Shown here: in pieces, positions 9,978-61,729 of the stretch | Layout of the letters: each line of letters begins with the position of its first letter | Numbering within the stretch: the stretch's first letter is position 1 | Assembly (NCBI GenBank): GCA_016124945.1 | Contig: WGMT01000060.1 | Coordinates: 1,135-65,134 of the forward strand | Reading direction: 5' to 3' | DNA from: a bacterium | GTDB lineage: Bacteria > Chloroflexota > Anaerolineae > Caldilineales > Caldilineaceae | DNA length: 64,000 nt | Translations under genes and position numbers: made by a program | The notes under the pieces: generated by a model | Database searches by the model: none | Told to the model about the DNA's origin: nothing | Seen by the model: only the letters and a program-made list of their open reading frames with translations

Positions 9978-10790
9978 ATGAACCCATTTGGCCTGCCCTT
10001 CCGCCCCCGACTCGACAGGCTGCGCCCGCTCTTTCAGGCCGCCTTTTCTGAACAAGTGACACTGGCTGGTTTGCGCCTTCATGTGCCAGGACCGCTGCCT
10101 ATCCGGCTGGGTGTGGTACTGGGGAACCTACGCATGCAGCACATCTTCGATCGCCTACTTCGCCCCGGGAATATTGTTGTTGATGTAGGTGCCAATACCG
10201 GCTACAACACCTTCTACGCCGCCCACTGTGTAGGACATACCGGGCGCGTCTACGCCGTTGAACCTGCACAAGACAACCTCGCTGTCCTCTACGAAGATCT
10301 CTTCGCAAATCGATTCTCCCACGTCCATGTATTGCCCTATGCCGCCGGCAGCCGAAAAGCGGTGCGCCCATTCTATTTACGTGGCAGCGTCAGTGCCGTC
10401 AACAGCCTTTTTCAAGAAAGCTTCTACGCCGATGTCACAGAAACGGTGGACGTATTCACCGCACGCCTGGACGATCTAATCCACGAGAAACCAGATCTGG
10501 TGAAGATCGACGTAGAAGGCGCAGAACTTGACGTGTTGCAGGGTATGTCGCGTATGCTCGAACAAGCGTCCACACAGCTAGTAGTGGAGTGGCACCCCAC
10601 CTTGCAAATGGCTGCCGGTCACCCACCAGATGCGCTGCCCCGATACCTGCTTGATCGCGGCTTTATACTACAAATAGTCACCCACACCAGCCGCAGGCCG
10701 CTTCATCCGGCAACCTTGCCGGCCATCACCCAAGCGCTGCTCGCCGCGCGACGTCCGGTGGAATTGCTCCACATCCCCAATTGCGCTTAA
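9978..10790 (+). CDS. FkbM-family SAM-dependent methyltransferase
   Basis: Motifs VVDVGANTGYNTFYAA...VYAVEP...VKIDVEGAELDVL. The ORF track opens at TTG 9942. ATG 9978 is the more likely start. Confidence 0.75.
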   Translation: MNPFGLPFRPRLDRLRPLFQAAFSEQVTLAGLRLHVPGPLPIRLGVVLGNLRMQHIFDRLLRPGNIVVDVGANTGYNTFYAAHCVGHTGRVYAVEPAQDNLAVLYEDLFANRFSHVHVLPYAAGSRKAVRPFYLRGSVSAVNSLFQESFYADVTETVDVFTARLDDLIHEKPDLVKIDVEGAELDVLQGMSRMLEQASTQLVVEWHPTLQMAAGHPPDALPRYLLDRGFILQIVTHTSRRPLHPATLPAITQALLAARRPVELLHIPNCA

Positions 10791-24648: not shown

Positions 24649-25326
24649 CTATGGTTGGAAGGTGCTCCAAATTGAGGTGACGATCAACGCTTGGGCTGGG
24701 CCATAGGTGAGCCAGATGAGGGTGTTCATGGCCGGGAATTTGCGATTGGCGAAGAGGTCAAGCGCGATGAGGAGATCGCTAACAAGGAAAAGGGCGGCGC
24801 CCACAGCCAATCCGCTGAAAAGTGGCTGTTGCAGGGCAAGTCCTGTGGCAACGCCTGCGGTGGAAGCGAGCAGGAGCGTATAACCCAGTGCGCCACGCCG
24901 AATGGCAGGTGGTTGTAGTTGTGTACTGCTGAGGACGACAAAGTAACCGAGCAGACCACCTATCAGCAGCCAGATGATCCAGGCGATCCACCCCACCGGG
25001 GCATAGGTGACCACAGCGGTAATGTAAAAAATGTGCCCCAGGCCAAAAGCAAGCATACCAGCTAGTTCGCGACTTGGGGCAGGCAACACACGGGCCATAT
25101 AAAGATCGCCCACCAGCCCCACCGACATGCCGGCGGCGATGAAGCCGGCGTAGCGCACAGCAGATAAATCCTCAGCTAGGACATACCCGTACCAAACCAA
25201 AACGACGAGCACAAACGATGAAGCCAACCGCGGCCAACTTGCCGTGCGCATACGCGCCAGGCCAAGCAAGAGCAGAAACACCCATGCACCCACCCATAGC
25301 CAGGCAATCAGATCAAGTGGCGGCAT
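24649..25326 (-). CDS. YhhN-family (lysoplasmalogenase-like) membrane protein
   Basis: Polytopic protein with VGDLYMA and FGLGHIFY motifs. The most likely start is ATG 25326, giving MPPLDLIAWLW.... The ORF is open to 25536, but that stretch overlaps the upstream gene. Confidence 0.7.
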   Translation of the reverse strand: MPPLDLIAWLWVGAWVFLLLLGLARMRTASWPRLASSFVLVVLVWYGYVLAEDLSAVRYAGFIAAGMSVGLVGDLYMARVLPAPSRELAGMLAFGLGHIFYITAVVTYAPVGWIAWIIWLLIGGLLGYFVVLSSTQLQPPAIRRGALGYTLLLASTAGVATGLALQQPLFSGLAVGAALFLVSDLLIALDLFANRKFPAMNTLIWLTYGPAQALIVTSIWSTFQP

Positions 25327-25331
25327 GGTTT

Positions 25332-25967
25332 TTACTCTGTACGGTAACCGAGGAGTTGCGGCTCTGCCCACACAGCCCAGTTCCAACGGGCGTCGCCCAG
25401 ACCGTCGGTCATCCATTGGAGCACAACGTCCTGGCCGGCAAGGCTGGGCAATTCCACCATATGACGTTCCCATTGTGTAGTCTGTTTGGTGGTGCTCCAC
25501 AACCGCACGCCGTTGACAAAAATGCGGAAGGCGCACATGTTGTCGCCTTGCATGAGGGCGCCGTCGCGGATGCCTGCTGCAAATTGCAGGCGTAGGCGGT
25601 CTACATCGGCGGGGACGTGCAGTTGGTATTCCACCACAGCGCTACCGTTGACGGGCGGATGCTGCCAGAGTGCGTTCTGCTGCACCATGCCACAACTGGC
25701 AGGGCCGACTTTGACTTCCATCAACGCGGGTTGACGGGTGGCCGCCTGGCGCGCCTTGGCGAAATTCTCGAGGAAGTCATATTGCCAGACGAGACGCTGG
25801 CCGTTTAGATCGTCTTCTTCGTCTTCGAAGAGGCTGTGCCAGAGTTCTTCTTGCCATTTGAGGTAGCTAATGTATTGCGAGAGTTGAATCAGAGACTGCT
25901 CACTGAGATCGCCGATGCGGCGGATCACGGCATCAAGCGTCTCTTGACGGGGATCGAAATCGGCCAT
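25332..25967 (-). CDS. Hypothetical protein
   Basis: Likely start is ATG 25967 (MADFDPRQ...). 211 aa with no motif I recognise. Its stop lies 6 nt from the YhhN start, which suggests an operon. Confidence 0.55.
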   Translation of the reverse strand: MADFDPRQETLDAVIRRIGDLSEQSLIQLSQYISYLKWQEELWHSLFEDEEDDLNGQRLVWQYDFLENFAKARQAATRQPALMEVKVGPASCGMVQQNALWQHPPVNGSAVVEYQLHVPADVDRLRLQFAAGIRDGALMQGDNMCAFRIFVNGVRLWSTTKQTTQWERHMVELPSLAGQDVVLQWMTDGLGDARWNWAVWAEPQLLGYRTE

Positions 25968-26052
25968 TGGGTCGATCCTATGCGGTGGGGTGATGGGTAA
26001 CAAAAAGGCCGACTTTGAGGACAAAGCCGGCCCTGATGGTCGGTAAACTTGT

Positions 26053-26598
26053 CTACACAGTGCCTGCAAAACCCCAAGAGGCGTCACCTTGCATAAGGCC
26101 GTTCATCATTGCTTCCCAGCGAGAGGCGGCGGTGGGGTTACTCAGAAGCACGAGCGCCACATAGCTAGGCTCAAACGGCTTGCGCGGGAGCAACATACCC
26201 GCTTCTTCAGGCAACATGTTGCCCTTCTTGTGATTACATGCCTGACAGGCTGTAACCAAGTTGCTCCAATCGTGACGTCCTCCGCGGCTGCGCGGCAGGA
26301 CGTGATCAACGGTCAACTCATGGCGGCTGGGGGTGCCGTGGCAATACTGGCACGTGTACGCATCGCGCAGCATCACGGCGGCGCGTGTCGGTGGCACAGA
26401 ACGGTGGGGCAGGCGCACGTAGCGAGTCAGCCGGATTACCAGTGGCTCGGGCAGGGCGCGATTGGTGCTACACAGGACGCGCTCTGTGGTTTCCACAAGT
26501 TCCGCCTTCTCGCGCAAGAGCAGCACAACTGCCCGCCGCACCGAGACAAGGCTCAGTGGTTCAAACGTGGCATTCAAAACAAGCACCGTTCTCGACAT
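26053..26598 (-). CDS. HNH endonuclease-domain protein
   Basis: CQYCHG...[32 protein letters not shown] is the canonical HNH/CCHH motif. Confidence 0.85.
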
Positions 26599-26648
26599 TC
26601 AGACACCCTCTGTGTCCCGCACCGTCCTCGATCCGGGTGAGGGACACA

Positions 26649-27032
26649 CTACACAGCGGCTACAGCGCCGGTACGAATCACGACCTCCATCAAAAAGAAA
26701 CAGACGATAGCCATCAAAATAGATTTTACATTCTCGTCTTCTATGCGGCTGAAGTAACCGTAAGCAGCCGGCAAGGTAACGAGTGCAACACAAGCATACA
26801 GAATGTGCACAAAAGCGCGTGGTAAGTTCTCTCCCAATCCCTGGCTATAGAGCACAAAGCCCAGGACGAACTGAACAACCACCACAAGTTCGGCGATGAC
26901 GGCGGCACCGTACCAACTTCCACCAAGCGGCTGTGAGCGTAAGCGACTGATAATCGCCATTACCCCCAGCGCAATGAAAAGGAGCACCGACGTCCGCGCC
27001 AGCCCCTCATGAAGAAGAATCAATGTGCCCAC
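26649..27032 (-). CDS. Small integral membrane protein (4 predicted TM helices), function unknown
   Basis: 127-aa hydrophobic ORF with no competing ORF. Confidence 0.55.
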   Translation of the reverse strand: MGTLILLHEGLARTSVLLFIALGVMAIISRLRSQPLGGSWYGAAVIAELVVVVQFVLGFVLYSQGLGENLPRAFVHILYACVALVTLPAAYGYFSRIEDENVKSILMAIVCFFLMEVVIRTGAVAAV

Positions 27033-27209: not shown

Positions 27210-28634
27210 CTACGCAGGCCGGTGAACGCCTAGATATTGTGCTATCACACCGATTACAGGCGTATTGCCGATGTCGTAGCTGATCCATTCGTTGCTGGTA
27301 CCCAGCCCGTAGATGCAACCACCGACGACGTAATCGTCCTGTTGCATTGCTTTATCATACCATACCAACTGCTCAACATAAGCGCCGGGCCCCCACAAAC
27401 CGTAGCCATTCTGCGCCCAGTAATCCTGAAAGTGCTGCCAACCCCGTGCATCCTGCGGCCCAGGACGACCCGCTTGTACAAGACCATCAACCCCTAGTTC
27501 GGTCATAACCAACGGGATAGCAAGGCCACGTGGCTTGAGAAATTTGTTGTAGACGTGGCGATAGCGCAACGTCAACCAGCCGGTATCCTGGGCAGAAACG
27601 CCGGGGTAGCGTCCTTGATCGGAACGGGTGCTGAGAAAGTAGATGGTGGGCGCAGCGTACTCATGCAGGCCCAACCAGCCATCGTACTGTTTCGCCGCCT
27701 GCATGGCAGGCAAAAAGTATTCCCACTGCTCGAGTGGTGGCTGACCGGTGCCGAAGTTGCCGATTACGCTGCGGATGCCGTACTCGGCAAGCAGACGGGT
27801 ACGTTCGGCTTCAAATTCGGCGAGCCGTTTCATCTCTTCGGCATTGCCGGGCACCGGTTCGTTATAGGCTTCCCAGGCATCGAACCAGTTTTTGCGCGCC
27901 GGATCATTGGCGAATGGGAGCAGCTTTTCCACAAAGGCACGCGCCGTAGCAATGGGGTCGATGGTAGCAAGCGACACTTGATCGGTGTGAATGCGCCCGA
28001 TCAGCCGCGTGCGCGGGGATACCTGCTTGATCTGCGCCGCGAAACCAGCGTCCAACTCCAGGGTTTTGACCACGCTGATGCTGCCAGTTTCGAGTAGATC
28101 GAACAGTTGGGGATCATTCCGTTCAACATGCACGCCCAGCTTGCTTGGCGGCCCTGGCGGAAATGGCGTACTGATCGGTGTAGGCGTTGCCGGCGGCGGC
28201 GCAGGTGTGGCGGTAGGCGGCGCTTTAGTCGGCGTCGGTTCGATCACCGGTTGCGCCGCCGCGATCACATCCGGATCAGTTGCTTGTACGTCGGGCAGAA
28301 AGGTGGTATGCGAAGACGATGTCGCCGTAGGATCCGGGGGGCGGGGAGTACGTGTCGGCGTCGGCGTTGGCTCCGGTTGCCGTCCACAGGCGGCGGCAAG
28401 TAGACCGATCCCGGCGCCGACGCTGCGCAAGAAACGGCGACGGCTCAAAGGACGTTCCTCGACTTCCCCTAACTCTGGATTGGGTGGGTGAGAGCCTGCC
28501 GGTGTAGACGTTGCATCAACAAGGTGAGCCTCCTCTTTCGACGAGGCAGATTCGATTTGTGGTTGGGGGAGTTCCTTGCCGAGAGTTGCTGCGGTGGTAT
28601 CCTCCTGCTTGTTAGGTTCTTCCATCATGGGCAT
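27210..28634 (-). CDS. Tat-exported lipoprotein with Pro/Thr linker and clan GH-A-like (TIM-barrel) glycoside hydrolase-like domain
   Basis: [19 protein letters not shown] (twin-Arg plus lipobox), a PT-rich linker, then YNEP and TELGVDG motifs spaced as in the acid/base and nucleophile of clan GH-A. TTG 28448 with GAGGAA 7 nt upstream would give MSRRRFL... and remove an odd 62-aa extension before the Tat signal. Confidence 0.6.
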
Positions 28635-28903
28635 ACTATACCATTTTGCAAAATAGCGACCAAAAATCCGCGCTGTGCTGAGGACGCCTTCTAAAACACG
28701 ACTTTATGGTTCGTACTACGTTGTGTGTACCATTCGACATGCTACGCCACATGGTGGTTCATTTTTCTAGGCTTTCCATCAACTCTGTTCAATTGCAAAA
28801 CTCGTGTTGCCATGATGCCCTGGATACGATAAACTAGCCCCCCAAGATACCCGTCCTCTTGGTTAATTTACCCAACGCCACATCGAACTCAAGGAGATCC
28901 ACC

Positions 28904-29158
28904 ATGAAAACGTACGAAGTGAGCATTGAATACTGCGTCCAGTGAAACTACACCCCTCGTGCTGTCCGTGCGGCAGCCGATCTATTGAGCGACTACACCC
29001 CATCTATCACAAGCCTCAAGCTCATCCCCTCTTCAGGCGGACGCTTTGAAGTCCTTGCCAACGGCACCGTGATCTACAGCAAAAAAGCCGAAGGACGCCA
29101 TGCCGAAGAAGGCGAGGTGGCGCGGTTGTTTGGGGAGAAGTTGGTGATTCGTGATTGA
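28904..29158 (+). CDS. selW: SelW/Rdx-family selenoprotein (84 aa) with in-frame UGA (Sec) at 28943-28945
   Basis: AAGGAG at 28891-28896, then ATG 28904. Translation: MKTYEVSIEYCVQ-U-NYTPRAVRAAADLLSDYTPSITSLKLIPSSGGRFEVLANGTVIYSKKAEGRHAEEGEVARLFGEKLVIRD. IEYCxxU is the Rdx redox motif, and 70 stop-free codons follow the TGA. The gene is absent from the ORF track because TGA was treated as a stop. Confidence 0.8.
28957..28980 (+). promoter_or_regulatory. Bacterial SECIS-like stem-loop
   Basis: The hairpin starts 11 nt after the UGA. The lower stem has 3 bp (28957-59 with 28978-80), and U28960 is bulged. The upper stem has 6 bp (28961-66 with 28972-77, one G-U pair). The apical loop is CGUGC. 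Confidence 0.55.
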
Positions 29159-29182
29159 TGATTGGGCAGATCCTGTCGAGTA

Positions 29183-29220
29183 GATGATGGGATGATGAGC
29201 CTTTGCATCATCCCATCATC
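29183..29220. terminator. Perfect 15-bp hairpin between convergent selW-like and nif3 genes
   Basis: GATGATGGGATGATG (29183-29197) pairs with CATCATCCCATCATC (29206-29220) around an 8-nt loop. There is no strong U-tract. Confidence 0.55.
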
Positions 29221-29245
29221 TCTGCCCCAATTACCAATCCCTTTC

Positions 29246-29998
29246 TCAAATCCCCGTGGGTATATCCACAAACTCGAACTCGACACCAAACTTGTCCGCT
29301 ATCAGTTGACCGAGCGCCTGCACACCAACAGTCTCAGTGCCGTAGTGCCCGCCGTAGAGGACGTTCATGCCATAGTTGAAGGCATCGTAGAATTGGGCGT
29401 GGCTGGTTTCGCCGGTGATGAAGGCGTCGCAGCCGAGGGCGGCGGCCTCTTCGATCTGACGAGCGCCTGATCCGCTGAGGATCCCCACACGGCGGATCTG
29501 CTGCGGCCCATGCGCAAGGACCAGTTTCACGTCGCCCACTGCTTCACGGTAACGGTTTGTCAGCTCCTCGAAGGTGATTGGCTCCGGCGATTCGGCCAGC
29601 GCCGCCAAGGGCACCCCGTTGACCTTTCCCCACCATGAGGTCACGTTCAACCCTAAACGTCGCGCCAGTTGCGCATTGTTCCCCACTTCAGGGTGTGCGT
29701 CCAAAGCCAGGTGGGCGGCGTAGAGGTTGAGATCGGCCTGAATGTAGGTGCGCACCAGCCGCCCAAAGCCACCGCTGATCTTCTGCGGGCCACCCCAAAA
29801 GATGCCATGATGGACAAGCAGCATGTCCGCGCCGCGGGCCAGCGCCGTCTCTACCACAGGCAGGTGTGCGTCCACTGCGCCGATGATCTTGAGGATCTCG
29901 GCGCGGCCTTCGATCTGCAAGCCTTGGGGACCGTAGTCTTTGATCTCGGGGATCTTCAGGTACTCATCGAGGAATTGGACCAGTTCGTTGCGTTGCAT
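29246..29998 (-). CDS. Nif3-family dinuclear metal-centre protein (YbgI/GTP cyclohydrolase 1 type 2 homolog)
   Basis: 250-aa ORF with [15 protein letters not shown] and GGHYGTE motifs. AAGGAG lies 7 nt upstream of the ATG. Confidence 0.85.
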
Positions 29999-34164: not shown

Positions 34165-37095
34165 CTACGTATACGCCTCAATCGGCAGGCATGCACACAC
34201 CAGATTGCGGTCGCCGTAGACATTGTCGACGCGGGCGACATGGGGCCAGAATTTGTTCTCTTTGACCCAGGACGCGGGGAAGGCGGCCTGCTCGCGGCTG
34301 TAAGCACGATCCCATGTGTCCGCGGTGACGACGGCGGCGGTGTGGGGCGCGTGGTGCAGTGGGCTGTCCACCGCGGCGATTTCGCCACGCTCGATGGCGC
34401 GGATCTCGTCGCGGATGGCGATCATGGCGTCGCAGAAGCGATCCAATTCGTCCTTCGATTCGCTTTCGGTGGGCTCGATCATGAGCGTCCCCGCCACTGG
34501 GAAGGACATGGTGGGGGCGTGGAAGCCGAAGTCCATCAAGCGCTTGGCGATGTCTTCCACTTCGACGCCGAATTCCTTAAAGGGGCGGGCATCGATGATG
34601 CATTCGTGCGCCACGCGGCCGTTCTGCCCTTTGTAGAGGACGGGGAAGTGCGGATCAAGGCGGGCGGCGATATAGTTGGCGTTGAGGATGGCGATCTTCG
34701 TGGCTTCGGTGAGGCCGCTGCCACCCATCATGGCGATGTAGACGTAGGAGATGGGCAGGATGCTGGCGCTGCCCCACGGCGCCGAGGAGACGAGACCGAT
34801 GGCGTCCTCGCCGCCGACCTTGTCCACGACGGGATGGCCGGGCAGGAAGGGAGCCAGGTGCGCCGCCACGCCGATAGGCCCCATGCCAGGGCCGCCACCA
34901 CCGTGGGGGATGCAGAACGTCTTGTGCAGGTTGAGGTGACAGACGTCGGCGCCGAAATCGCCGGGGCGGCAGAGGCCCACCAGCGCGTTCATGTTGGCCC
35001 CGTCCATGTAGACCTGCCCACCGTTGGCGTGGATGATCTCACAGATCTCGACGATGCCCGCCTCGAAGACGCCGTGGGTCGACGGGTAGGTGACCATGAG
35101 CGCGGCCAGGTTGTCTTTGTGCTGGTCGGCCTTGGCGCGCAGATCGGCGATGTCGATGTTGCCGTGATCGTCACAACGTACCACGACGACTTCCATCCCT
35201 GCCATGATGGCGCTGGCTGGATTGGTGCCGTGCGCCGAAGACGGAATCAGGCAGATGTTGCGGTGATCGTCGCCGCGGCTGAGGTGATAGGCGCGGATCA
35301 CAAGCAGGCCGGCGTATTCGCCCTGCGAACCGGCGTTGGGCTGTAGCGAGACGGCGGCAAAGCCGGTCACCTCTTTGAGCGCGTCTTCCAATTTCTGGAA
35401 GAGTTCTCGATAGCCCATGGTCTGGTCGGCGGGGGCAAAAGGATGCAAATGGTTAAACTCTGGCCAGGTGACGGGAATCATTTCTGTGGTGGCGTTGAGT
35501 TTCATCGTACACGAGCCGAGCGGGATCATGGAATGGGCCAGAGACAGGTCGCGGCTCTGTAACTTGGTGATGTAGCGCAGCATCTCGGTCTCGGAATGGT
35601 AGGTGTTAAAGACCGGATGGGTGAGGAATTCGCTGGTGCGCGCCGCATTGCCGTAATCGAGATCGATGGCGTCGGCGGCTGCGGACAGGTCAACTTCCCC
35701 CGCGCCGAAGAGATCAAGCAGGGTACGCAGTTCGGCAACGGTGGTGGCTTCGTCCAACGAAACACCCACGCTGCCGTCGGCATTGACGCGCAGATTGACG
35801 TTGCGCGCCTTGGCTGCATCACGTAGCGCAGACTGGCTGTCGGCGTCTCCCGTGACCTTGAGCGTATCGAATACGAGACCATCGTTGACTGCGTAGCCCA
35901 ATTTGGACAGTTCACCGCGCAAGATCGAGGTAAGCAACTGCACACGGCGGGCGATGCGGGTGAGTCCTTGCGGGCCGTGGTAGACGGCATACATTGAAGC
36001 CATCACCGCCAACAGCACCTGCGCCGTGCAAATGTTGCTGGTGGCCTTTTCGCGGCGGATGTGTTGCTCACGGGTTTGCAGCGACAGGCGCATGGCCGGG
36101 TTGCCCTGCGCGTCTTTGGAGACGCCGACGAGACGACCGGGCATGGTGCGTTTGTGGGCGTCTTTGGTGGCCATGAAAGCCGCATGAGGACCGCCGTAGC
36201 CTAACGGCACGCCAAAACGTTGCGCGCTACCGATGGCCACATCCGCGCCCCATTCGCCGGGCGGGGTGAGCAGCGTCAACGCCAGCAGATCCGTGGCGAC
36301 GACGACAAGGGCGTCCACCGCATGGGCTTGGGCGCAGAATTGGGCGTAGTCGTGGATTGTGCCATCTGTCGCAGGGTATTGGATCAACACGCCGAAGACG
36401 GAGTCATCAATAACGGCGTTGCGGTGATCGCCCACGATCACGTTGATACCCAACGGTTCGGCGCGGGTACACACCAGATCAATGGTCTGTGGGTGGCAAC
36501 TTTCAGAAACGAAGAAGGTGTTTGCGTTGGAAGAGCGCTTTTGGGCACGCTGACAGAGCGTCATCGCTTCGGCGGCGGCAGTACCTTCGTCGAGCAACGA
36601 GGCGTTGGCAACGTCGAGGCCGGTGAGTTCGGCGATCATGGTCTGAAAGTTGAGCAGTGCTTCGAGCCGTCCTTGCGCAATTTCGGCCTGGTAGGGGGTA
36701 TATTGGGTGTACCAGCCGGGGTTTTCGGTGATGTTGCGCAGGATGACGGGCGGTGTCAATGTGTCGTAGTAGCCCATGCCGATGAAGGAGCGGTAGACGC
36801 GGTTGCGCCCGGCGATTTGGCGCATTTCGGTCAGCACGTCCGACTCGCCACGTGGACCGGCCAACGCCAGTGATCCCTGCATGCGGATTTTGCTGGGCAC
36901 GGCTTCGTCGATGAGCGCGTCCACCGACGGTAGCTCGAGGACGGCCAACATGGCGTCCACTTCGTCGGGGCTGGGGCCGATGTGACGCTCAACGAACTGG
37001 TCGGTGGCGTCGAGCAAAGCGGCCTGATGGCGGCGTACTTCCTTGTGGTGGCCATTGGTGCGAATTGGTGTGGCGGCTTGTGACAGACTACCCAT
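34165..37095 (-). CDS. gcvP: Glycine dehydrogenase (decarboxylating), single-chain P protein of the glycine cleavage system
   Basis: 976-aa ORF collinear with single-polypeptide GcvP. Preceded by a glycine riboswitch and an AAGGAG Shine-Dalgarno. Confidence 0.95.
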
Positions 37096-37176: not shown

Positions 37177-37390
37177 GTCCCTGTCATCAACCTGAGAGAT
37201 TGACCCACAGCATTGTACTGCCGTGAACTTGCCCCGTCGGTGTCCTCGGCATATGACACCGAGTCCTTTCCAGAGTAGCCGCAGCACGACGATCCGTTTG
37301 CCTGAGAGTGTCACCGAGGGAGTCGTGGCCGCTCCACCGGCTTGCACCTTCGGCGCCCCTTTTGCAGGGATCTCTCTCGCCGCGTGTTGG
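37177..37390 (-). promoter_or_regulatory. Tandem glycine riboswitch (two aptamers)
   Basis: Minus strand. Aptamer 1: GAGAGAG...GCGCCGAAGGUGCAA...CUCUCAGGCAAA. Aptamer 2: CUCUGGAAAGGAC...CACCGACGGGGCAA...CUCUCAGGU..GACAG. These match conserved glycine-aptamer cores in the 5' leader of gcvP. Confidence 0.9.
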
Positions 37391-40979: not shown

Positions 40980-43862
40980 TTACGATGCCTCAACAGCAAG
41001 TTGCGGCTTTCCATTCCAGCGAGAAATACGCTTTGAATAGAGAGGGGCTGCCATCTGGTTGTGCGCCCGCATGACCTCGGTGGCGGAATTACTAATGAGA
41101 TGCGGGTTCTGTTCAACAACTTCAAAAAACGCAGTCACGATAATCGGATCAAATTGCTGACCGGAACATCGCTGTAGCTCAGACAAAATGGCCTGTATGG
41201 GTTTATTGCGCTGATAAGGCCGATCAGATGCCATTGCTTCTACAGCATCGCACACAGAAAGAATACGAGCCGCCAAAGGAATCTCTTCCCCTTGCAAACC
41301 GGCTGGGTAGCCACCGCCATCCCATTGCTCGTGGTGTGAGCGGATCATAGGTGCAAGGTGTTGTAAGGCATGGCTTGTCAAGAGGAAATCCGCACCAATC
41401 GCTGTATGCTGCTTGACAATTTCATACTCGTCGTCGGTGAGTGAACCCGGCTTAAGTAGAATCCGTTCAGGAATACCCATTTTCCCAATATCGTGTAAGA
41501 GGCCGGCCTGGTATACTTCTTCGACCTCTTCTTCGGGTAGATTGAGATGGATGGCAATGGCACGAGCGTACTCTGCCACTTTGGATGCATGACCCGACAC
41601 GAAAGGATCACGGGCGTCGATAATGCGAGAGAGCGTCAGCATCAACTCCTGGTTCATCTGCTCGATGGACGCTTTCCCTTTGATCACCTGTTGATTGGCT
41701 TCGGCCAATTCTGCATTCATGCGTCGCAGTTCACGCACAGAATTTTGTGTCCGATCGACATACATACGCTGCATATGGTGCATGCTGATAATGGGGAGTA
41801 TATAGATGAGAACACCCACGATCCCCATAGAGATATAGGCAAGCGCAAGAAACAGCCCCAATACACTCAATGTTATATACGGCCGGAGCAGCCAACGGAA
41901 CTGTTCATTCCATACGGCGCGTACCTGCGTTCCCTCAGAAAGTGCAAGCGCAGATGCAACCAATCCCGTTTCAATGAAGAAGTAAATGACTGCAGCAACA
42001 CTCGTACCAGGAACCAATATCCAAAGCGCTTCAAACGACGTTATGCTCTCAAATGCTTGCTTGACTAGATAAGCCAGCAGCACCGGAGCCATACCTGCTA
42101 GTACATGAGCCGACCAGTTAAAAAGCAGTTTGTAGAACTGGCCACGCGCGCGCAGGTAGTGCACGATTGCAATTACAGTGCTGGTAGCAACGACACCAGG
42201 CCCACCACACGCCAGCGCCGCTGCAAAGACAATCGCAACAGCACTCGATACGGAACTTTTTTCGTAGAGCCCGAATTGGAGCCACTGTACGCCAAAGGCC
42301 AACAGTGAAAAGACCAAAAGACTCACCCAGCTAAATTCTGTTTCCATCAAAGACGTCACGAGGCCTGCCACGATACCAAACAGGATGACCGCTTCGATAA
42401 AAAGCCAGGGTGTGGTCAAAGTCCTTTCGACAGGCGTTTCGACGCGCACATTCGTTTGCTTAGGCGTCTGCATCGTCGGTCGCATCTGTTTTTCAGGTTT
42501 GTCTGGCATTTTAACCGGTGCGTCCGCTTTTTCAATCGGCTCGCCGCTCTGCACAATCGGTTCCAGTACAGGAACTTGAGGCAGTGTACCTCGCTTTTCA
42601 GCCAGCGCATCTGCAGCATCGATCTTAACTGAACGCGGGACCTGAATCGCCTGGACTACTCTATTGCGTCCTTGAAGTTTGGCCTGGTACAAGGCGACAT
42701 CGGCTTCGTAGATCAGCTTCTCCACGGAATCAGCGTCCTCAGGGAAGCAGGCAACCCCCAAACTCATTGTTGCATGCAATGGCCCATTTACTGTCGAACA
42801 GTGAAATGACGTGGCCTCTACAGTTTCACGTATGCGTTCAGCAATGGCGACAGCCTGTTCACGTGATGTGTTCGGCAGTAGAATGGCGTATTCCTCGCCG
42901 CCGAACCGGCTTGGCGTATCTTGCTTGCGCACAATCTTACGGATAATCGTCCCGATACCCGAAATCACTGCATCACCGGCCAGGTGGCCGTACGTATTGT
43001 TGATAGTGCGCAACAGATCGAGATCAGCCATGATCACTGAGGCAACACGCCGATTCTGCTCAGAGCTGACAAGTTCAGATTGAAGTGTCTGATTGAAGTG
43101 ACTGGCGTTCCAGAGGCCGGTTTTCTCGTCGGTATTGGCCTTCTTTTCCAACTCGGGCACTTGTAAAGCGCGATAGAGCATGACAAACGGAGCAATCACG
43201 AGCGGCAACAGCCACGGGCTTAGCGTCCACAATAAGGCTGAAATGTAGCCAATCGTCATCATGACGCCGTCTGTCACTAGATCTTCAATTTCCATAACAC
43301 CAGATTCAACCCACGAAATCTGCCGTGCCATTGTCAACGCTTGACCGATCAACAGATGATTGATCAGTGTGTACACGGTGATGGATGCAATGGTCGCCAA
43401 CAAAGTAGACTGAAGTGTGAAGAGCGTAAAGTCCAGTGTGCCGCCCATGCGTTGAAAAACCTGTTGCGCAACAATACCGGCAATAACATGTGATGCAATG
43501 TTAAATGGCTGCACGTACCAGGTATAAGGATCTCCCTCTAGTTGTCGCTTGGCCCACTCCATTAGATGGGGAATGGCCACGACAAGGAAGAGCCCGTAGG
43601 GAGGCAACAGTACAACGGCTACAAAAAACGGAACAAGATGTGGATAGTATGAATGTCTACTCGCACGGACTTTGACTTCGAAAAACTGGCCGTAAATACC
43701 AAGAACAACCCACACGGCAAGGGAGAACAAGTCGGAATCTTTGGTCGGCATCGACAGTTGCGCCACTACAGTTAGGCCAACAGCAGTTAGCCAAACAGAC
43801 CATAGATAGAACCATGTTTGCTTCGACATACCGATCTTCCTTGCGCTTCTTCTTGCCGGCAA
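40980..43862 (-). CDS. Membrane-bound dual-domain c-di-GMP enzyme: TM sensor - GGDEF - second TM block - coiled coil - HD-GYP
   Basis: 960-aa ORF. Diguanylate cyclase motif RFGGEEYAILL; HD-GYP motifs LLHDIGK and HHEQWDGGGYP. There are two multi-helix hydrophobic blocks. Confidence 0.9.
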   Translation of the reverse strand: MPARRSARKIGMSKQTWFYLWSVWLTAVGLTVVAQLSMPTKDSDLFSLAVWVVLGIYGQFFEVKVRASRHSYYPHLVPFFVAVVLLPPYGLFLVVAIPHLMEWAKRQLEGDPYTWYVQPFNIASHVIAGIVAQQVFQRMGGTLDFTLFTLQSTLLATIASITVYTLINHLLIGQALTMARQISWVESGVMEIEDLVTDGVMMTIGYISALLWTLSPWLLPLVIAPFVMLYRALQVPELEKKANTDEKTGLWNASHFNQTLQSELVSSEQNRRVASVIMADLDLLRTINNTYGHLAGDAVISGIGTIIRKIVRKQDTPSRFGGEEYAILLPNTSREQAVAIAERIRETVEATSFHCSTVNGPLHATMSLGVACFPEDADSVEKLIYEADVALYQAKLQGRNRVVQAIQVPRSVKIDAADALAEKRGTLPQVPVLEPIVQSGEPIEKADAPVKMPDKPEKQMRPTMQTPKQTNVRVETPVERTLTTPWLFIEAVILFGIVAGLVTSLMETEFSWVSLLVFSLLAFGVQWLQFGLYEKSSVSSAVAIVFAAALACGGPGVVATSTVIAIVHYLRARGQFYKLLFNWSAHVLAGMAPVLLAYLVKQAFESITSFEALWILVPGTSVAAVIYFFIETGLVASALALSEGTQVRAVWNEQFRWLLRPYITLSVLGLFLALAYISMGIVGVLIYILPIISMHHMQRMYVDRTQNSVRELRRMNAELAEANQQVIKGKASIEQMNQELMLTLSRIIDARDPFVSGHASKVAEYARAIAIHLNLPEEEVEEVYQAGLLHDIGKMGIPERILLKPGSLTDDEYEIVKQHTAIGADFLLTSHALQHLAPMIRSHHEQWDGGGYPAGLQGEEIPLAARILSVCDAVEAMASDRPYQRNKPIQAILSELQRCSGQQFDPIIVTAFFEVVEQNPHLISNSATEVMRAHNQMAAPLYSKRISRWNGKPQLAVEAS

Positions 43863-43959: not shown

Positions 43960-45165
43960 TTACTCGGTTAAGACTGCGATTGGTAACGCCAAATAGAAGG
44001 TACTTCCCAACCCTTCGCCTGCACTTTCAACCCATACACGCCCATTGTGTGCTTCAGCGATTTTTCTACATACAGCAAGCCCTGTACCCATACCACCAAA
44101 GACACGGGTCGTTGTACCGTTTCCCTGACTGAACTCATCAAAAATGGTACGCTGTTTTTGGGGTGATATACCAACCCCCTGATCTGAAATGGCAACAATA
44201 ACTTCGTTAGATGACACAATCATCTGGACGAGCACCGAGTTGTCTTCGTAACTAAACTTTATAGCGTTATCAAACAGATTGCTTAACGCCTGAGTCAAGA
44301 GGGTACCATCTGCCATTACGTGCACTGCGTCGACACTTGGAGACAGCCACTCTAGCCGAATCTGCCGATTGAGTGCATACGGCTGAGACTTACGAAGCAC
44401 CGTCTGAAGAAGCGAAATCAACTCTATCGGCGTCTTGTGCATCTGCTCTGTCGATAGTGACTGTAACAGAAGCAGTTGTTCTATCATTTCCTTAAGATAC
44501 TGAGCCCTTTCTTGCAGAATGCTCAATGCATCTCGCTGATCTTGTGTTAACGGACCGAGGACTTCGTCCATCAGTAAATGTGTGTAGCCGTGAATTAAGG
44601 CTAGGGGCGTCCGCAATTCGTGAGACACATTCTGTAGCATCTCCTGCTTAGCTTGCAGTGCCCGATGAAGTGATTCATTGCTTAAGCGTAGCCCTTCTTC
44701 AGCCGCCTTGAGCTGGGTTACATCATTCACAATGACTGCACTGGTACGAGAATTGACTCGGCTCCTCACATCAACCGGCTGGACCTTGATCTGAATGTAG
44801 CGCTGCAAGTGTTGATCATAGAGTTCCATCTCACTCGTTGAATAGTGACGCAGTGCATGGTTCAGGAAACGCAGCATGGTACATTCACCATCTACACAAT
44901 CATGATGGAGAAGTGTGTGTAGATTCCTTCCCTTCACCATGGTAACCATCCCCAAACGCCAGCGCTCAACCGCGCGATTCGTTCGCCAGATCGTCCCTTC
45001 GTGATCCACCAAGCAGATCAGTTGTGGCAGCGCATCCATTGTCGCTTCCCACTCTTGCTTGGCAAGTTCGACTTTCTCGAACGTCTCTTGCAACAGCCGA
45101 GCCGACACAGAAGCCTGAGTGGAAGGTACTTCGTTTTTGTCGTCATGCGAGAGTGCGTAAGCCAA
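43960..45165 (-). CDS. Sensor histidine kinase (PAS-like - HisKA - HATPase_c), cytoplasmic
   Basis: H-box SHELRTPL, N-box LFDNAIKF, G-box GGMGTGLAVCRKIAE. No TM segment. Confidence 0.9.
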   Translation of the reverse strand: MAYALSHDDKNEVPSTQASVSARLLQETFEKVELAKQEWEATMDALPQLICLVDHEGTIWRTNRAVERWRLGMVTMVKGRNLHTLLHHDCVDGECTMLRFLNHALRHYSTSEMELYDQHLQRYIQIKVQPVDVRSRVNSRTSAVIVNDVTQLKAAEEGLRLSNESLHRALQAKQEMLQNVSHELRTPLALIHGYTHLLMDEVLGPLTQDQRDALSILQERAQYLKEMIEQLLLLQSLSTEQMHKTPIELISLLQTVLRKSQPYALNRQIRLEWLSPSVDAVHVMADGTLLTQALSNLFDNAIKFSYEDNSVLVQMIVSSNEVIVAISDQGVGISPQKQRTIFDEFSQGNGTTTRVFGGMGTGLAVCRKIAEAHNGRVWVESAGEGLGSTFYLALPIAVLTE

Positions 45166-45387: not shown

Positions 45388-45658
45388 TTATGCACAAAAA
45401 ACCTATCCATATACTCGTAGACAGGAAAAAGCTCAGTCTGACAAGCGAGGATAGGTCAAGAGCTGACTCGAGGCAGCCCGGCTGTCATAGCGATGTGCTT
45501 TAGACCCGTAGCTTTGCGTCCCCATCTTTCGATAAGTTTGCCTTTGCTTGAACAGAGATCATTTAGTTACTGTACAAAATACCTGAAATGTGCAAATTTA
45601 TGCTTAGTATTTTTAGCGTATTCTCAAACAGACTCAGTAAAAAGATTGAATTCTGTAG

Positions 45659-45772: not shown

Positions 45773-46357
45773 CTAACTGATGCCGACGGATAACTTTTGC
45801 ATCGGGAAGCGCGGGGGATTGGGCCGCAGGTTTAGTTTAGGTGCAGGCCGGTGGTTACTACGCATCAAGCCGGAATCCTTGCGCCAGCCTCGACTTGATC
45901 GGTGCTTGATGCCATGCGCACGCAACACCTGACGAATCGTTTCAACACTGATCTGAGCAACTATCTTGTTCTGAATCAGGTATTTGCGTAGCCGCTGTAG
46001 CGACCATTGGGAAAAGTTCAATCCCAGTTGGCGTGGATCTGCATCCGCGACTTCAACAATTGACTCGCGCTGCTCATCAGAAAAGACAGGTGGGCGCCCC
46101 GGTGATTTACCACTGCGTAACCCATCAATCCCTTCTTCATTAAAGCGATGAATCCACTTACGAACATTAATTGGGTGTAGCTCCACTTCTCGGCTGATCT
46201 CTTGCACACGGTGCCCTTGTGCCGATAAGAGCACGATCATTAATCGCTGCTCAGGAACATTGGGCTCTGATTGCTGGGTCAACCACTCAAGTTCTTCCCA
46301 CTCTTCATTCGTTAGATCACGTACAAACAAGGCCATTTTGTCTCTCCATGCACCCAA
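45773..46357 (-). mobile_element. IS630/Tc1-family transposase, N-terminal HTH/winged-helix portion only (DDE domain missing): IS remnant
   Basis: [55 protein letters not shown]...[15 protein letters not shown] is typical of IS630 ORF N-termini. The ORF ends after about 190 aa with no D..D..E region. Sits in an AT-rich context. Confidence 0.7.
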
Positions 46358-48173: not shown

Positions 48174-50261
48174 GTGCCAAGATACCAAAAGCCCATCAGA
48201 TTTGCAACTCCTCATCTAATTCACCTCTGGCTGGGATTGTTGGTGCTTTGCACCAGCCCGCTTTGGAGTGGACGCGTGGCAGAAGCTCGCCCCGTGCAGC
48301 AGTCACCCACGATAGATCCCATACACTTGTATTTACTGCCGCTGACAGACACATCTGTACGGCTTATGACTCACACCTTTGATGTTGACGTACGGCTCGA
48401 AAATGAACAAACGGTATTCCTCGTCAACGCCGGTTACAGACTTCATAACACAACACGGGAAAGCCAGACCGTGCTACTGCAAGTGATCCCATCCCCAGCC
48501 CAGACAACCCAAGGTCTCCCAGAAGGTGTTGCGCTGGCCGTGGATGGACAGGTGCTGCCGCTGCAACCTACCGGCACCGGCTATCCTCAAACCAGCCAGG
48601 TGACCATTGCCGCGGATGGACGCCGCCTGCTCACGCTGACCTACCAGGTGCGCAGCAACGCCGTTGACCTTGGTACCTTTCGTTATGCTCCTCGTTTACT
48701 TGACCCTTGGGCCGGGCGGCCTGAAAGTTGGCGCATTACACTTAACCTCCCAGGCGAAACATCCGGCTCGTTACCCGCCGAAAGCTGGGTAACCACCTCG
48801 CCTGATTCGTGGACATATAACGGTCGCAGGCTACAGTGGCTACAAGAAGGCGCGTTTCCCCAACAACCATTCGTACTCCAGTGGATCGCACCGCCCCTCT
48901 GGCGTTCTCTGGCTGAGACACGTCAACTGCTCACTACCGAACCAACTCTAGAACGATTCCTGACACTGGGCGATCGATACAATCGGCTCTACCGAGCACC
49001 ACAGATCGAGGACGGTGCACGCCGCCGATTCTATGCCCAGGCATTGGCCGCCTACAGCGACGGCATCACCTACGTGCAGCAGGTGGGGCTACCTTCGACA
49101 GAGTTGGCCGCAGTGCACCGCGCCCTGGCAACCCTCTATCGCAGCCGTAGCATCGGCAGCAACGGAGAGGTCGATCCTGCCTACATCGATCTGATGGTGC
49201 AAGAAATCGAGCGCGCGCTGACAACGCTCCCCCAGGACGATGGCCGCCGCACAGAACTCACCCAATGGCTAGCGCAAGGACTGGAGACACAACTCCGGCA
49301 AGCCCAACAACAGGCAAATTGGTCTCAGGCGGCAACTATTCTTGAACAGATGGCGACACTGCCTAACTTTGATCCTGCCTGGATCGCCTCGGAACGACAA
49401 CTCATCGAGCTACAACAAGCCCTCATCCTGCTTGGTCAAGACAACCAGGACGCCGCCCTTGCACTGGCAGGCGCCGCCATCCTCGATGAATCTTTGCTGC
49501 CGCCGCCCGAAAATCGAGCACTCTTTGCCGGCTGGCAGGTGACACTGACACTGGGACTCAACGAAAACGCGCTTCAGCTTGTCGCTTCACCTGTGGAAGG
49601 GCGCCAAGATACAGCGCGCCTGGTCGCCGATCAGCTTGAACAGGCGTGGCAGAATGCCGGGGCAACCGGCGCCCAGGTTTTCTTCATGGCGGATGGCCGC
49701 CTGCGCATCGACCTATCGTCACAGGCATTGACCGAAGGACGGCTTGTCCTCGCTCGCTCAGTGCCGCCTTTAACCGATTGGGCGCTTTTGCGTACGCTTC
49801 TGGCTTCACTCGATCCCTCTGTCAACCGTAGCAATCACTGGGTCTGGGATCGAGTGGAGATTGCCCAATACATCGATCTACGCGCCGCTTCGGATCAATG
49901 GCGTGGTGTGGCAGCACTGCTAGAACGACAGGCCGCCGACATTCAATTCGTCTCCGCCGGCACAGACACGCAATCGGTAGACGCCGTTCAGGCTGAGATT
50001 CGCCCTCAGTTACACCAGAACTACCTGACAAGCGAAGCACAAATCTGGCAGAACGCGGTCCGTGGCAGTACCGTCCGGGTTGAGGTCTTGGTAGGTGCAG
50101 AGCGCGATCCGGCCCGCGTTTGGATTGTACAGATGAGTGATGCGCCACAGACACTTTCTTTCCAAACCGAAGTGTTAAGCGGCCCACGTTTACTGATGGC
50201 AGTGCTCATCCTATTGGTTTTGATACTGGTACTCGCTGGGTTGCTCTGGCTACTACTCTAA
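48174..50261 (+). CDS. Uncharacterised exported protein with N-terminal signal and C-terminal TM anchor
   Basis: 695-aa ORF with a GTG start. N-terminal hydrophobic segment (LIHLWLGLLVLCTSPLW), C-terminal LLMAVLILLVLILVLAGLLWLLL, and a helical repeat-like middle. Sits immediately upstream of the transglutaminase gene. Confidence 0.65.
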   Translation: MPRYQKPIRFATPHLIHLWLGLLVLCTSPLWSGRVAEARPVQQSPTIDPIHLYLLPLTDTSVRLMTHTFDVDVRLENEQTVFLVNAGYRLHNTTRESQTVLLQVIPSPAQTTQGLPEGVALAVDGQVLPLQPTGTGYPQTSQVTIAADGRRLLTLTYQVRSNAVDLGTFRYAPRLLDPWAGRPESWRITLNLPGETSGSLPAESWVTTSPDSWTYNGRRLQWLQEGAFPQQPFVLQWIAPPLWRSLAETRQLLTTEPTLERFLTLGDRYNRLYRAPQIEDGARRRFYAQALAAYSDGITYVQQVGLPSTELAAVHRALATLYRSRSIGSNGEVDPAYIDLMVQEIERALTTLPQDDGRRTELTQWLAQGLETQLRQAQQQANWSQAATILEQMATLPNFDPAWIASERQLIELQQALILLGQDNQDAALALAGAAILDESLLPPPENRALFAGWQVTLTLGLNENALQLVASPVEGRQDTARLVADQLEQAWQNAGATGAQVFFMADGRLRIDLSSQALTEGRLVLARSVPPLTDWALLRTLLASLDPSVNRSNHWVWDRVEIAQYIDLRAASDQWRGVAALLERQAADIQFVSAGTDTQSVDAVQAEIRPQLHQNYLTSEAQIWQNAVRGSTVRVEVLVGAERDPARVWIVQMSDAPQTLSFQTEVLSGPRLLMAVLILLVLILVLAGLLWLLL

Positions 50262-61100: not shown

Positions 61101-61729
61101 ACAGCCTCACCCTCAGCCTCGATCCCGCCACCGTGAAAGCCGTCACCGTGGCGTCGATGAACTGGGTGCCCTACCGCTGGAACGGCGTCGACGGCTGGGA
61201 CGCCTACGCCATCGATCAATATGCCATCGCCAAAGTGGACGGCTGGGAAACGCTGCTCTCCACGGCCTGGAGCGATCCGGCAGACGCCGAAGCCGCCGCC
61301 CTCTTCGCCACCGGCTACTACCTCACCCTGGCCAGTGGACAGGCGCAGGTGGTGGAATACAACAACGCCGCTACCCAACTGGCCGCCGCCGCCGATGACG
61401 CCGCCATCTTGGCAAAGTTGGCGACGAGCAGCGTGATCGAATCCACCGTCTACGGCATGATGGACGCCATCTACAGTTGGACGGTAGGCACCAATCTCAA
61501 GGACATTGCATCACTGCTCAACATCAACAGCGCCATCAGCATGGGCTACGCCGACGCCTTCCAAAAGATCTTCGGCATTGACCAGGGCTTCATGGACAGC
61601 CTCCAACTCGAAGGGCTGGCCGGAACGATTTCACCGGCGGAGTTCATATCGTGCGCCCCGGCGAAACGATCCAATACACGGCCACGGTGGAAAACAACCT
61701 GCGCACCAGCTTCGCCCAAGGACGGCTAG
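58166..61729 (+). CDS. Giant surface protein, segment 1 (TM/anchor-like helix, thrombospondin type-3 Ca-binding repeats, large uncharacterised region)
   Basis: 1187-aa ORF. TSP3 repeats DSDGITDAVE, DTDGDGLSDGVE, DSDFDGLSDLAE and DTDGDNQPDAFDPDDDNDGVPD. The first 50 or so residues of this frame look non-coding; ..LAPIARAQD.. resembles a signal-peptidase site. Confidence 0.7.
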   Translation: MPPPNLQSPSLLIAKSLFSQKVPNEVPTFRPAFAVDHHNHRPRAGIAPLRLAPIARAQDAPTTALQRAWQTAEDIAAYRYHTTIDQVTSPLPTLANVGLSPQQEQIYIEGSVDRAAETMQMKLWNDDGNVIQGVGALQLEVADGIARGRVDGGDWQEVDDFSNFFAPGQDPLGFVRAAHNVTQAEERTLSLPEGSTPTLRRYVFDLDGKALARLVRANWEESLRRQGKLPAHVTLELPSHFVNMTGHGELWIDERGLPWRLRMDLTFPPTADEQLNAVIVTDFSSWEKDNVAAASTAIPTVGALISSSLQGLERSLPAWLSVLTGLILAAVIVAVRRSRLGYGVIVGVIIASMLITPILQAEQSAAFAADMDSRARAAAADADNQRQLDEQKAALNATTWDPHADPLASPQTQDVAQDRAAQAAPALPTPISITDDGTDSDGITDAVEKAYGLNPNLADTDGDGLSDGVEVYELGTTPTERDSDFDGLSDLAEVRGFVLGGRNWYLDPTNPDSSGDGQIDGVTCTENNSALTCLDTDGDNQPDAFDPDDDNDGVPDRVDTSPALVVGDAQNGLTNRTFTYALNQFAANKPIYVDFQLRPTNPAHLWYSLSVLDWPSGDREGQVQRVFNTTFYDGLSAGQQANLNANGGSSTLRNGDLRLVPLLEIAIPFDATGGNLPKLPNAPTISASTPISAWLDVAAMQSFGISVRKANEAGDLLAYVPLSLVREQAQNGPVAFGGRMLYRPSSGVFGPGHSARLIWLVEAITDRCKNMPDDYAPADVDEADRYAHWCGNNANWESNGSTIVHTYADDWLLTGFEVTENLGMDAALIYTDPARTTATPNTLYEEELWQLTQALDVSLMTGRDEGNNGRDVTVQTVGSWFAENGGGCDAFNGVHPWQWDLAGTALRARCFSYADVTGMGDLGAQRIPTVLQDRYTPQVNGGRQDALILALREERSRNLPLDQATLPGVTPVNGRISTNSLTLSLDPATVKAVTVASMNWVPYRWNGVDGWDAYAIDQYAIAKVDGWETLLSTAWSDPADAEAAALFATGYYLTLASGQAQVVEYNNAATQLAAAADDAAILAKLATSSVIESTVYGMMDAIYSWTVGTNLKDIASLLNINSAISMGYADAFQKIFGIDQGFMDSLQLEGLAGTISPAEFISCAPAKRSNTRPRWKTTCAPASPKDG

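Follow-up and report, generated by a model that had tools for sequence, protein, structure and literature searches.

A probable SelW-like selenoprotein gene with a conserved intragenic hairpin in a Caldilineaceae bacterium

Introduction

Does an in-frame TGA in a short, otherwise open reading frame of a Caldilineaceae bacterium end translation, or does it encode selenocysteine (Sec)? The codon lies at positions 28943-45 of a 64,000-nucleotide stretch of contig WGMT01000060.1 (assembly GCA_016124945.1; Chloroflexota), hereafter the window. The initial annotation of this DNA proposed that the TGA belongs to a gene of the SelW/Rdx family, which the list of open reading frames (ORFs) had missed, and that a hairpin just downstream resembles a selenocysteine insertion sequence (SECIS). 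Our computational analysis indicates that the locus is very probably a genuine Sec-encoding SelW-like gene.

Bacterial SelW-like proteins with a CxxU motif, where U is Sec, have been known for about two decades (2004-2005), and few homologs carry Cys instead (PMC1088965, PMC2398784, PMC1794560). Their function is presumed to be redox (PMC1088965). In the Sargasso Sea, 48 such genes were counted, and the family is the most abundant prokaryotic selenoprotein family both there and in the Global Ocean Sampling (GOS) data (PMC1088965, PMC2398784). The latter contain 427 Sec against 56 Cys forms (PMC2398784).

Results

A complete gene read through a single TGA

All position numbers refer to the window, and the SelW-like gene lies on its plus strand. 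An ATG at 28904 opens the gene, 7 nucleotides after a Shine-Dalgarno-like AAGGAG (28891-28896) that was read from the sequence. From there the gene extends to 29158 and comprises 84 codons, including one putative Sec codon, followed by a TGA stop at 29156-58 with a second TGA directly after it. The in-frame TGA at 28943-45 is followed by 70 sense codons with neither a stop nor a frameshift, and it closes a C-V-Q-U redox motif (28934-28945) whose Cys codon is the TGC at 28934-36. The translation reads MKTYEVSIEYCVQ*NYTPRAV...VIRD*, with asterisks at the TGA codons. Direct reading and translation recovered the AAGGAG, the ATG, the in-frame TGA, the 70 open codons and the stop, all as the initial annotation had given them. 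The ORF list itself holds only a 57-residue ORF in this region, starting at a TTG (28985-29158). A promoter scan returned a single weak sigma-70-like site at 28807-28835, whose 9 of 12 matches correspond to chance level.

A generic scan of the window for ORF-TGA-ORF read-through yielded 124 candidates, among which only the TGA at 28943 had family support. Most of the others, judged by eye from a motif-filtered list, arise where real genes are overlapped out of frame.

The TGA is conserved across at least six phyla

Scanning one genome per species gave 80 related loci, to which one separately fetched locus was added (81 in total). The 80 loci come from Caldilineaceae and other Chloroflexota, Acidimicrobiia and Actinomarina, isolates of Thermoactinomycetaceae, Gemmatimonadota, Fidelibacterota and Dormibacterota; the closest, in the Caldilineaceae metagenome-assembled genome (MAG) JAHBVG010000057, is 80% identical. 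The aligned codon is TGA in 81 of the 81 loci where the region is present, and these loci span at least six phyla (Chloroflexota, Actinomycetota, Bacillota with Thermoactinomycetaceae, Gemmatimonadota, Fidelibacterota and Dormibacterota). Around it, the related loci share the motif [IL]-E-[YF]-C-x-x-U-N-Y-x-P-R-A.

Purifying selection accompanied by synonymous variation is seen on both sides of the UGA. In the ten codons 5' of it, Tyr/Phe, Glu and Ile/Leu are kept while the codons vary synonymously, and the Cys at position -3 is present in 77 of 77 sequences (TGC in 62, TGT in 15). Moreover, a start codon with a Shine-Dalgarno-like motif lies 10-15 codons 5' of the UGA in 65 of 77 related loci. 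Protein conservation, which for a true stop might have been expected to end at the TGA, crosses it in 81 loci.

The use of TGA elsewhere in the window was also surveyed. Among 34 window genes with Pfam support, 11 terminate at TGA, as does the SelW-like gene, and none is fragmented under genetic code 11. As these well-supported genes end in TGA, the codon is not reassigned genome-wide in the source organism.

A hairpin in fixed register downstream of the UGA is under selection at the RNA level

The minimum free energy (MFE) fold of the mRNA downstream of the UGA contains a plus-strand hairpin at 28957-28980 with a conserved core of 5 base pairs at 28962-28976. After an 11-nucleotide spacer, it consists of UCG (28957-59), a bulged U (28960), GCUGUC (28961-66), the apical loop CGUGC (28967-71), GGCAGC (28972-77) and CGA (28978-80), with a folding energy of -11.6 kcal/mol (RNAfold). 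This is exactly the structure described in the initial annotation. In the window sequence, the G-C pair 28961/28977 adds a sixth pair to the core helix.

To compare this hairpin across relatives, we aligned the 48 nucleotides from the UGA onward, without gaps, for 76 distinct sequences. The core helix, formed by columns 20-24 and 30-34, reaches 93% pairing over 77 sequences, and its individual pairs are standard in 89-99% of cases. Pair 20-34 is standard in 68 of 76 sequences, as CG. Pair 21-33 is likewise standard in 68 of 76, as CG (51), UA (9), AU (4) and UG (4); pair 22-32 in 73 of 76, as GC (61), GU (8) and AU (4); pair 23-31 in 75 of 76, as UA (40), UG (24) and CG (11); and pair 24-30 in 70 of 76, as CG (64) and UG (6). 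Compensatory pair types thus occur at 21-33, 22-32 and 23-31. When the 3' partners were slid by 1-3 columns, pairing over the whole structure fell from 73.8% to 16.5-55%. In the apical loop, G 28968 (column 26), 23 nucleotides past the UGA, is invariant, and U 28969 (column 27) is found in 83% of the sequences.

Since the RNA of the hairpin also encodes a conserved protein, controls at the codon level were needed. G26 is invariant even though its codon stands for Ser, Arg or Gly. Where this loop codon encodes Ser, it is AGY in 52 of 52 cases, whereas these genes write the Ser of codon -7 in either way, as AGY or as UCN. Codon +9, which directly follows the loop codon, stands for six different amino acids and yet has G as its third base in 77 of 77 sequences, so that G30 is invariant; Leu at codon +13, by contrast, occurs with each of the six codons available to it. 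As a synonymous null, we resampled codons in 1000 runs while keeping the amino acids of every sequence as they are. All five core pairs are present in 76.6% of the observed sequences, compared with 12% (maximum 26%) under resampling, and the expected share of G is 54-55% for position 26 and 34-45% for position 30, compared with 100% observed at both. The hairpin is therefore under selection at the RNA level, with covariation and codon bias beyond what protein coding requires.

The proposal of a SECIS was upheld in one part and not in the other: the hairpin at its fixed register is conserved in 81 loci, whereas the lower 3-bp stem and the bulged U, on which its likeness to the Escherichia coli fdhF element had been based, are not. 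In the lower stem, 22 of 76 sequences form pair 15-38 and 43 of 76 form pair 17-36, and column 18, which holds the bulged U in the window, can be any base across the alignment. Given this lack of conservation in the family, neither the bulged U nor the lower stem is likely to serve in recognition. The conserved core of the putative SECIS is, as judged from the alignment, a helix of 5-6 bp capped by an N-G-U-N-N loop. In the published model of bacterial SECIS elements, the apical loop lies 16-37 nucleotides from the UGA, is small and contains a G (PMC10778597, PMC1088965). The loop described here begins 21 nucleotides past the UGA, is small and carries a G, and so falls inside that range. An Rfam scan of the window at gathering thresholds retrieved two riboswitches and no bacterial SECIS family.

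The product belongs to the Rdx/SelW family and is predicted to adopt its fold

For profile searches, the U of the window protein was replaced by C. The protein scores 72.2 bits on Pfam PF10262 (Rdx; cutoff 22.6) and 52.2 bits on NCBIfam TIGR02174 'CXXU_selWTH' (cutoff 34.2), and it passes NF041051 'SelT/SelW/SelH family (seleno)protein' marginally, with 89.3 bits against a cutoff of 88. These curated cutoffs bear out the family assignment made initially. That the part beyond the TGA, residues 15-84, resembles Rdx proteins in its own right is seen from the 46.5 bits that these 70 residues alone reach on the Pfam model, again above its cutoff.

A sequence search of the PDB retrieved the bacterial SelW-related proteins 2fa8, 3dex, 2p0g, 2obk, 2oka and 2ojl with E-values of 1e-8 to 1e-11, the best of which (1e-10 to 1e-11) belong to 2fa8, 3dex and 2p0g. 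In the alignment with 2fa8, 'YCTQCNW' is matched with 'YCVQ-U-NY' of the window protein. Cys also occupies the U position in the database homologs P0006 and P0039 (CVPC), so that Cys-containing homologs align their Cys to the putative Sec.

We modelled the fold with AlphaFold2 on P0002, the closest full-length database homolog. The model, with a predicted local distance difference test (pLDDT) score of 87, shows the order β1, CxxU loop, α1, β2, β3, β4 and α2; the Cys ends β1, and α1 begins 3 residues past the U position. The top PDB matches of the model in Foldseek are without exception bacterial SelW-related proteins; it superimposed on 2fa8, 2obk, 3dex and 2p0g with target-normalised template modelling (TM) scores of 0.86-0.93 and root-mean-square deviation (RMSD) values of approximately 1.1-1.5 Å; mouse SelW (2npb) and MIEN1 (2ljk) appeared lower in the list. 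From this homolog, which is 61% identical to it, the window protein is predicted to have the thioredoxin-like Rdx fold.

Selenocysteine decoding appears to operate in related Chloroflexota

We probed 1.3 Mb of sequence flanking the related loci for selA, selB and selD with E. coli sequences, whose matches serve as leads only. Four Chloroflexota loci (L036, L078, L058 and L067) carry a selD gene at a distance of 4-7 kb from the SelW-like gene, and its identity was confirmed by NCBIfam TIGR00476 (368 bits, cutoff 125). The catalytic codon of this selD is itself an in-frame TGA (CAG-U-ASK). The SelD selenoprotein genes span 16893-17942 in L036 and 14385-15437 in L078, and a gamma-glutamyltransferase gene follows directly in both. 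In L036, trpS lies immediately 3' of the SelW-like gene. The selA probe found no match in the 1.3 Mb of flanks, and the selB probe gave two partial matches with 27-30% identity, in L033 and L037; the former lies beside tRNA genes and may be an EF-Tu-type GTPase.

Because the selD nearby carries an in-frame catalytic TGA, decoding of UGA as Sec appears to operate in the relatives that carry the SelW-like gene. Chloroflexi are reported to possess the Sec-decoding trait while the selenouridine trait is missing from them (PMC5322559, PMC1794560), and our literature search found no selenoproteome specific to Caldilinea. Support for a Sec machinery in the source organism comes at the level of the lineage only.

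Weighing selenocysteine against other readings of the TGA

Several observations weigh against decoding as Sec or weaken the case for it. The 64-kb window contains no selA, selB, selD or tRNA-Sec: none of its 42 larger ORFs is one of the three protein genes, ARAGORN detected no tRNA of any kind in it, and its gene content is housekeeping in nature (Obg, a NadD-like protein, a TRAP transporter, acetyl-CoA synthetase and gcvP, among others). Nor did ARAGORN find tRNA-Sec in the flanks of the 80 related loci, although linkage is not expected and this result is therefore uninformative. Taken alone, the window hairpin is ordinary (z = -1.9; 8 of 200 shuffled sequences fold as well), and because the single-sequence fold is unremarkable, its significance rests only on the comparative analysis. 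The negative control for that analysis supports a SECIS, since the hairpin is absent from it, but it consists of only two Cys-form genes, L082 (TGC) and L084 (TGT), which retain just 3 and 2 of the 6 pairs of the register. Finally, the structural model was obtained for P0002 and not for the window protein itself.

Could the TGA instead be a lesion? A Cys codon (TGC or TGT) of a CxxC-type Rdx gene may have mutated to TGA and left a gene that is dead or yields a 13-residue peptide. TGA is one substitution away from either codon, Cys-form homologs such as P0006 and P0039 exist, and neither ORF tools nor public gene callers report an intact ORF. Decay of this kind is, however, difficult to reconcile with an identical TGA in every orthologous locus, with purifying selection on either side of it, with a hairpin that co-evolves at a fixed register 3' of it, with a retained start codon, Shine-Dalgarno motif and synteny, or with 70 downstream codons that have acquired no frameshift or second stop. 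It is similarly conceivable that only the downstream part is expressed from an internal start, such as the TTG at 28985, as a 57-residue fragment without the redox motif, the CxxU part being non-functional. Such an ORF is indeed listed, and public annotations of the orthologs are shortened products of this type. However, the truncated starts are choices of gene callers that vary from locus to locus, no Shine-Dalgarno motif precedes TTG 28985, the upstream segment with β1 and CxxU is the most conserved part of the protein, and the modelled fold needs β1. Because the upstream codons, the TGA and the start with its Shine-Dalgarno motif are conserved across loci, we consider both readings excluded, with next to no probability left for either.

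A third way to read the codon is as a standard amino acid, either under code 4 or 25 (Trp or Gly) or, at this site only, as Cys through a tRNASec-like tRNA(Cys) that follows a SECIS/SelB-type route. Recoding from Sec to Cys with tRNASec-like tRNAs has been described in some bacteria. Some database entries have W here (P0002, P0003, P0010, P0026 and P0087), and no Sec machinery lies in the window; the organism might lack the canonical machinery and read the UGA as Cys or another residue by means of such a tRNA. Against this, the TGA-terminated genes of the window exclude genome-wide reassignment, the entries with W are artefacts of gene calling (the DNA of two of them shows a stop under code 11), and a UGA-containing SelD, the selenium-donor enzyme, is encoded beside SelW-like genes in related Chloroflexota. 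We regard this reading, of which recoding to Cys at this site alone is the form left, as very improbable, though somewhat less so than the preceding two.

Reading the UGA as Sec, the decoding would proceed as follows. Translation would begin at ATG 28904, and the mRNA hairpin 11-38 nucleotides past the UGA at 28943-45 would act as a bacterial SECIS that recruits SelB-GTP-Sec-tRNA(Sec), so that selenocysteine is inserted at the UGA instead of translation stopping there. Translation would then continue for 70 codons beyond the UGA to the TGA at 29156. In the predicted product, Cys11 would lie at the end of β1 and Sec14 at the start of α1, and the pair could cycle between the selenolate/thiol and selenenylsulfide states in a small thiol-dependent oxidoreductase. 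We infer the binding of SelB, the insertion of Sec in the source organism, and the redox chemistry and substrate of the protein from known bacterial Sec decoding and from SelW/Rdx proteins.

Genomic neighbourhood of the SelW-like gene

The SelW-like gene converges on a gene of the NIF3/DUF34 family on the minus strand (29246-29998; Pfam PF01784, 211 bits), which is context and no part of the selenoprotein system; the two genes keep their synteny in at least 13 MAGs of Caldilineaceae/Chloroflexia. Their 87-bp spacer holds a perfect 15-bp inverted repeat with an 8-nucleotide loop at 29183-29220 (arms 29183-97 and 29206-20; extended stem approximately 29153-29240). The repeat folds at -44.5 kcal/mol (z = -6.8) and is unique in the window. 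The initial annotation had called it a terminator shared with nif3. The perfect stem is real, but it is not a canonical intrinsic terminator, as neither strand shows a U-tract, and a terminator scan did not flag it. It is likely a bidirectional hairpin at the ends of both transcripts, for which 'shared terminator' is a reasonable inference, not a demonstrated fact. The spacers between the SelW-like gene and nif3 in relatives also contain strong hairpins, of mutually unrelated sequence, the simple ones being perfect over 12-23 bp. In one locus (L013, approximately 10235-10647), this spacer forms a giant nested palindrome of 377 nucleotides with an MFE of -243 kcal/mol and GGTTGATT tandem repeats.

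On the other side, a divergent minus-strand gene (27210-28634), likewise context only, encodes a 474-residue protein with no Pfam match. Its sequence combines a twin-arginine-like signal and a long linker rich in Pro and Thr with a C-terminal domain that is conserved; this portion of approximately 310 residues is 62-80% identical in about 20 related Caldilineaceae MAGs, where the gene occupies the same divergent position. Upstream of it, also on the minus strand, lies a trio (25332-27032) that encodes a 251-residue unknown protein, an HNH endonuclease (181 residues) and a 127-residue unknown protein. In about 20 MAGs of Caldilineaceae/Chloroflexia, the trio and the gene for the secreted-looking 474-residue protein form a conserved block from which the SelW-like gene diverges, and about 20 Caldilineaceae MAGs keep the order of the 474-residue gene, the divergent SelW-like gene and the convergent nif3. 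That the selenoprotein is functionally linked to this constant neighbour (27210-28634), a secreted-looking protein of no assigned family, is a remote possibility. A 295-residue YhhN ORF (24649-25536) overlaps the 251-residue ORF by about 200 nucleotides, and because of this overlap its true start is probably further downstream.

Other features of the window

The two riboswitches lie elsewhere in the window, on the minus strand. A c-di-GMP-I-GGC riboswitch (45468-45551; 68.8 bits, gathering threshold 59) is found 5' of a histidine kinase gene (43960-45165), which is followed by a gene for a GGDEF and HD-GYP-type (HD_5) protein (40980-43862), both on the minus strand; it could be a leader that senses cyclic di-GMP on an operon that makes and breaks this compound. 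A glycine riboswitch aptamer (37280-37389; 61.3 bits) forms the leader of gcvP, a fused glycine dehydrogenase of 976 residues (34165-37095, minus strand), which is an ordinary arrangement. Adjoining the c-di-GMP riboswitch region, a 194-residue protein (45773-46357, minus strand) contains only helix-turn-helix (HTH) domains of the transposase type (HTH_32, HTH_29, HTH_23 and HTH_Tnp_1) and probably belongs to an insertion sequence (IS) element, either as its N-terminal ORF or as a remnant. Two large plus-strand ORFs, 48174-50261 (695 residues) and 58166-61729 (1187 residues), gave no Pfam match at E <= 1e-5.

Discussion

The overall design of the window gene is that of the prokaryotic SelW-like selenoproteins (PF10262, formerly PF05169; TIGR02174, NF041051). 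These comprise approximately 80-100 residues with CxxU at the β1/α1 junction of a thioredoxin-like fold, and their genes carry an in-frame UGA for Sec with an intragenic SECIS immediately downstream; the window gene resembles them on each of these points, and nothing substantive sets it apart. Its subfamily bears the signature C-x-x-U-N-Y-x-P-R-A together with LIPSSGGRFEV...GRHAE.GEV and is concentrated in Caldilineaceae/Anaerolineae (Chloroflexota) and Acidimicrobiia, whereas the first prokaryotic SelW-like examples to be described were marine and deltaproteobacterial or clostridial. All 80 loci of our genome scan have the Sec form, and Cys forms are far rarer.

When comparing the predicted protein with the solved bacterial Cys-form Rdx proteins (2fa8 Atu0228, 2obk, 2oka, 3dex SAV_2001, 2p0g and 2ojl), the fold is the same and their CxxC aligns with the CxxU. 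However, they have Cys in place of Sec, share 20-38% identity and are somewhat longer, with constructs of 103-108 residues. The eukaryotic Rdx proteins SelW, SelT, SelH, SelV and MIEN1 also share the fold and the position of the CxxU or CxxC motif, at approximately 22% identity. Whereas their SECIS elements reside in the 3' untranslated region, contain a kink-turn quartet and act with SBP2 and eEFSec, the window gene is of the bacterial intragenic type.

Comparing the putative SECIS with that of E. coli fdhF reveals a likeness in layout: both are intragenic hairpins 11 nucleotides past the UGA with a small apical loop that contains G-U. Like fdhF, the window fold also carries a bulged U beneath its upper stem, a feature that is unconserved in the SelW-like family. 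There is no sequence similarity between the two hairpins. In fdhF, the G-U of the loop is essential and is presumably presented to SelB. Counted from the U of the UGA, these fdhF bases are G23 and U24, and the bulged base is U17; the G-U of the window hairpin, at nucleotides 26-27, lies one codon beyond that position, and its bulge appears to be dispensable. It is conceivable, but distinctly unlikely, that the SelW-like genes of Caldilineaceae/Chloroflexota use a separate minimal SECIS with a helix of 5-6 bp, an N-G-U-N-N loop, its G-U one codon further than in fdhF and no bulged U. If true, their SelB would be expected to recognise the mRNA in an altered way.

Our survey of the 100 closest database proteins (P0001-P0100) uncovered a consequence for public annotations. 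More than 90 of them are truncated at the N-terminus, starting after the Sec codon and lacking CxxU, or have W in place of Sec; nearly all are 49-70 residues long and cover the C-terminal 50-75% of the query. Such short C-terminal entries are the signature of gene callers that restart past a stop, and in several entries listed as 'full-length' the TGA has been translated as Trp, so that W stands where Sec is expected. The SelD homologs show the same pattern of truncation, at 316-329 residues. The SelW-like homologs are thus subject to a systematic annotation error, and once the gene is called correctly, the whole redox protein is recovered.

The SECIS alignment of 77 sequences, together with its codon controls, offers a clean and reusable example of an RNA structure selected within a coding sequence. 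The finding, whose main value lies in annotation, adds an ordinary member to a known and abundant family of bacterial selenoproteins and leaves existing knowledge of that family unchanged. For the organism itself, the gene marks a Caldilineaceae-type bacterium as a probable user of selenocysteine, which bears on its trace-element needs.

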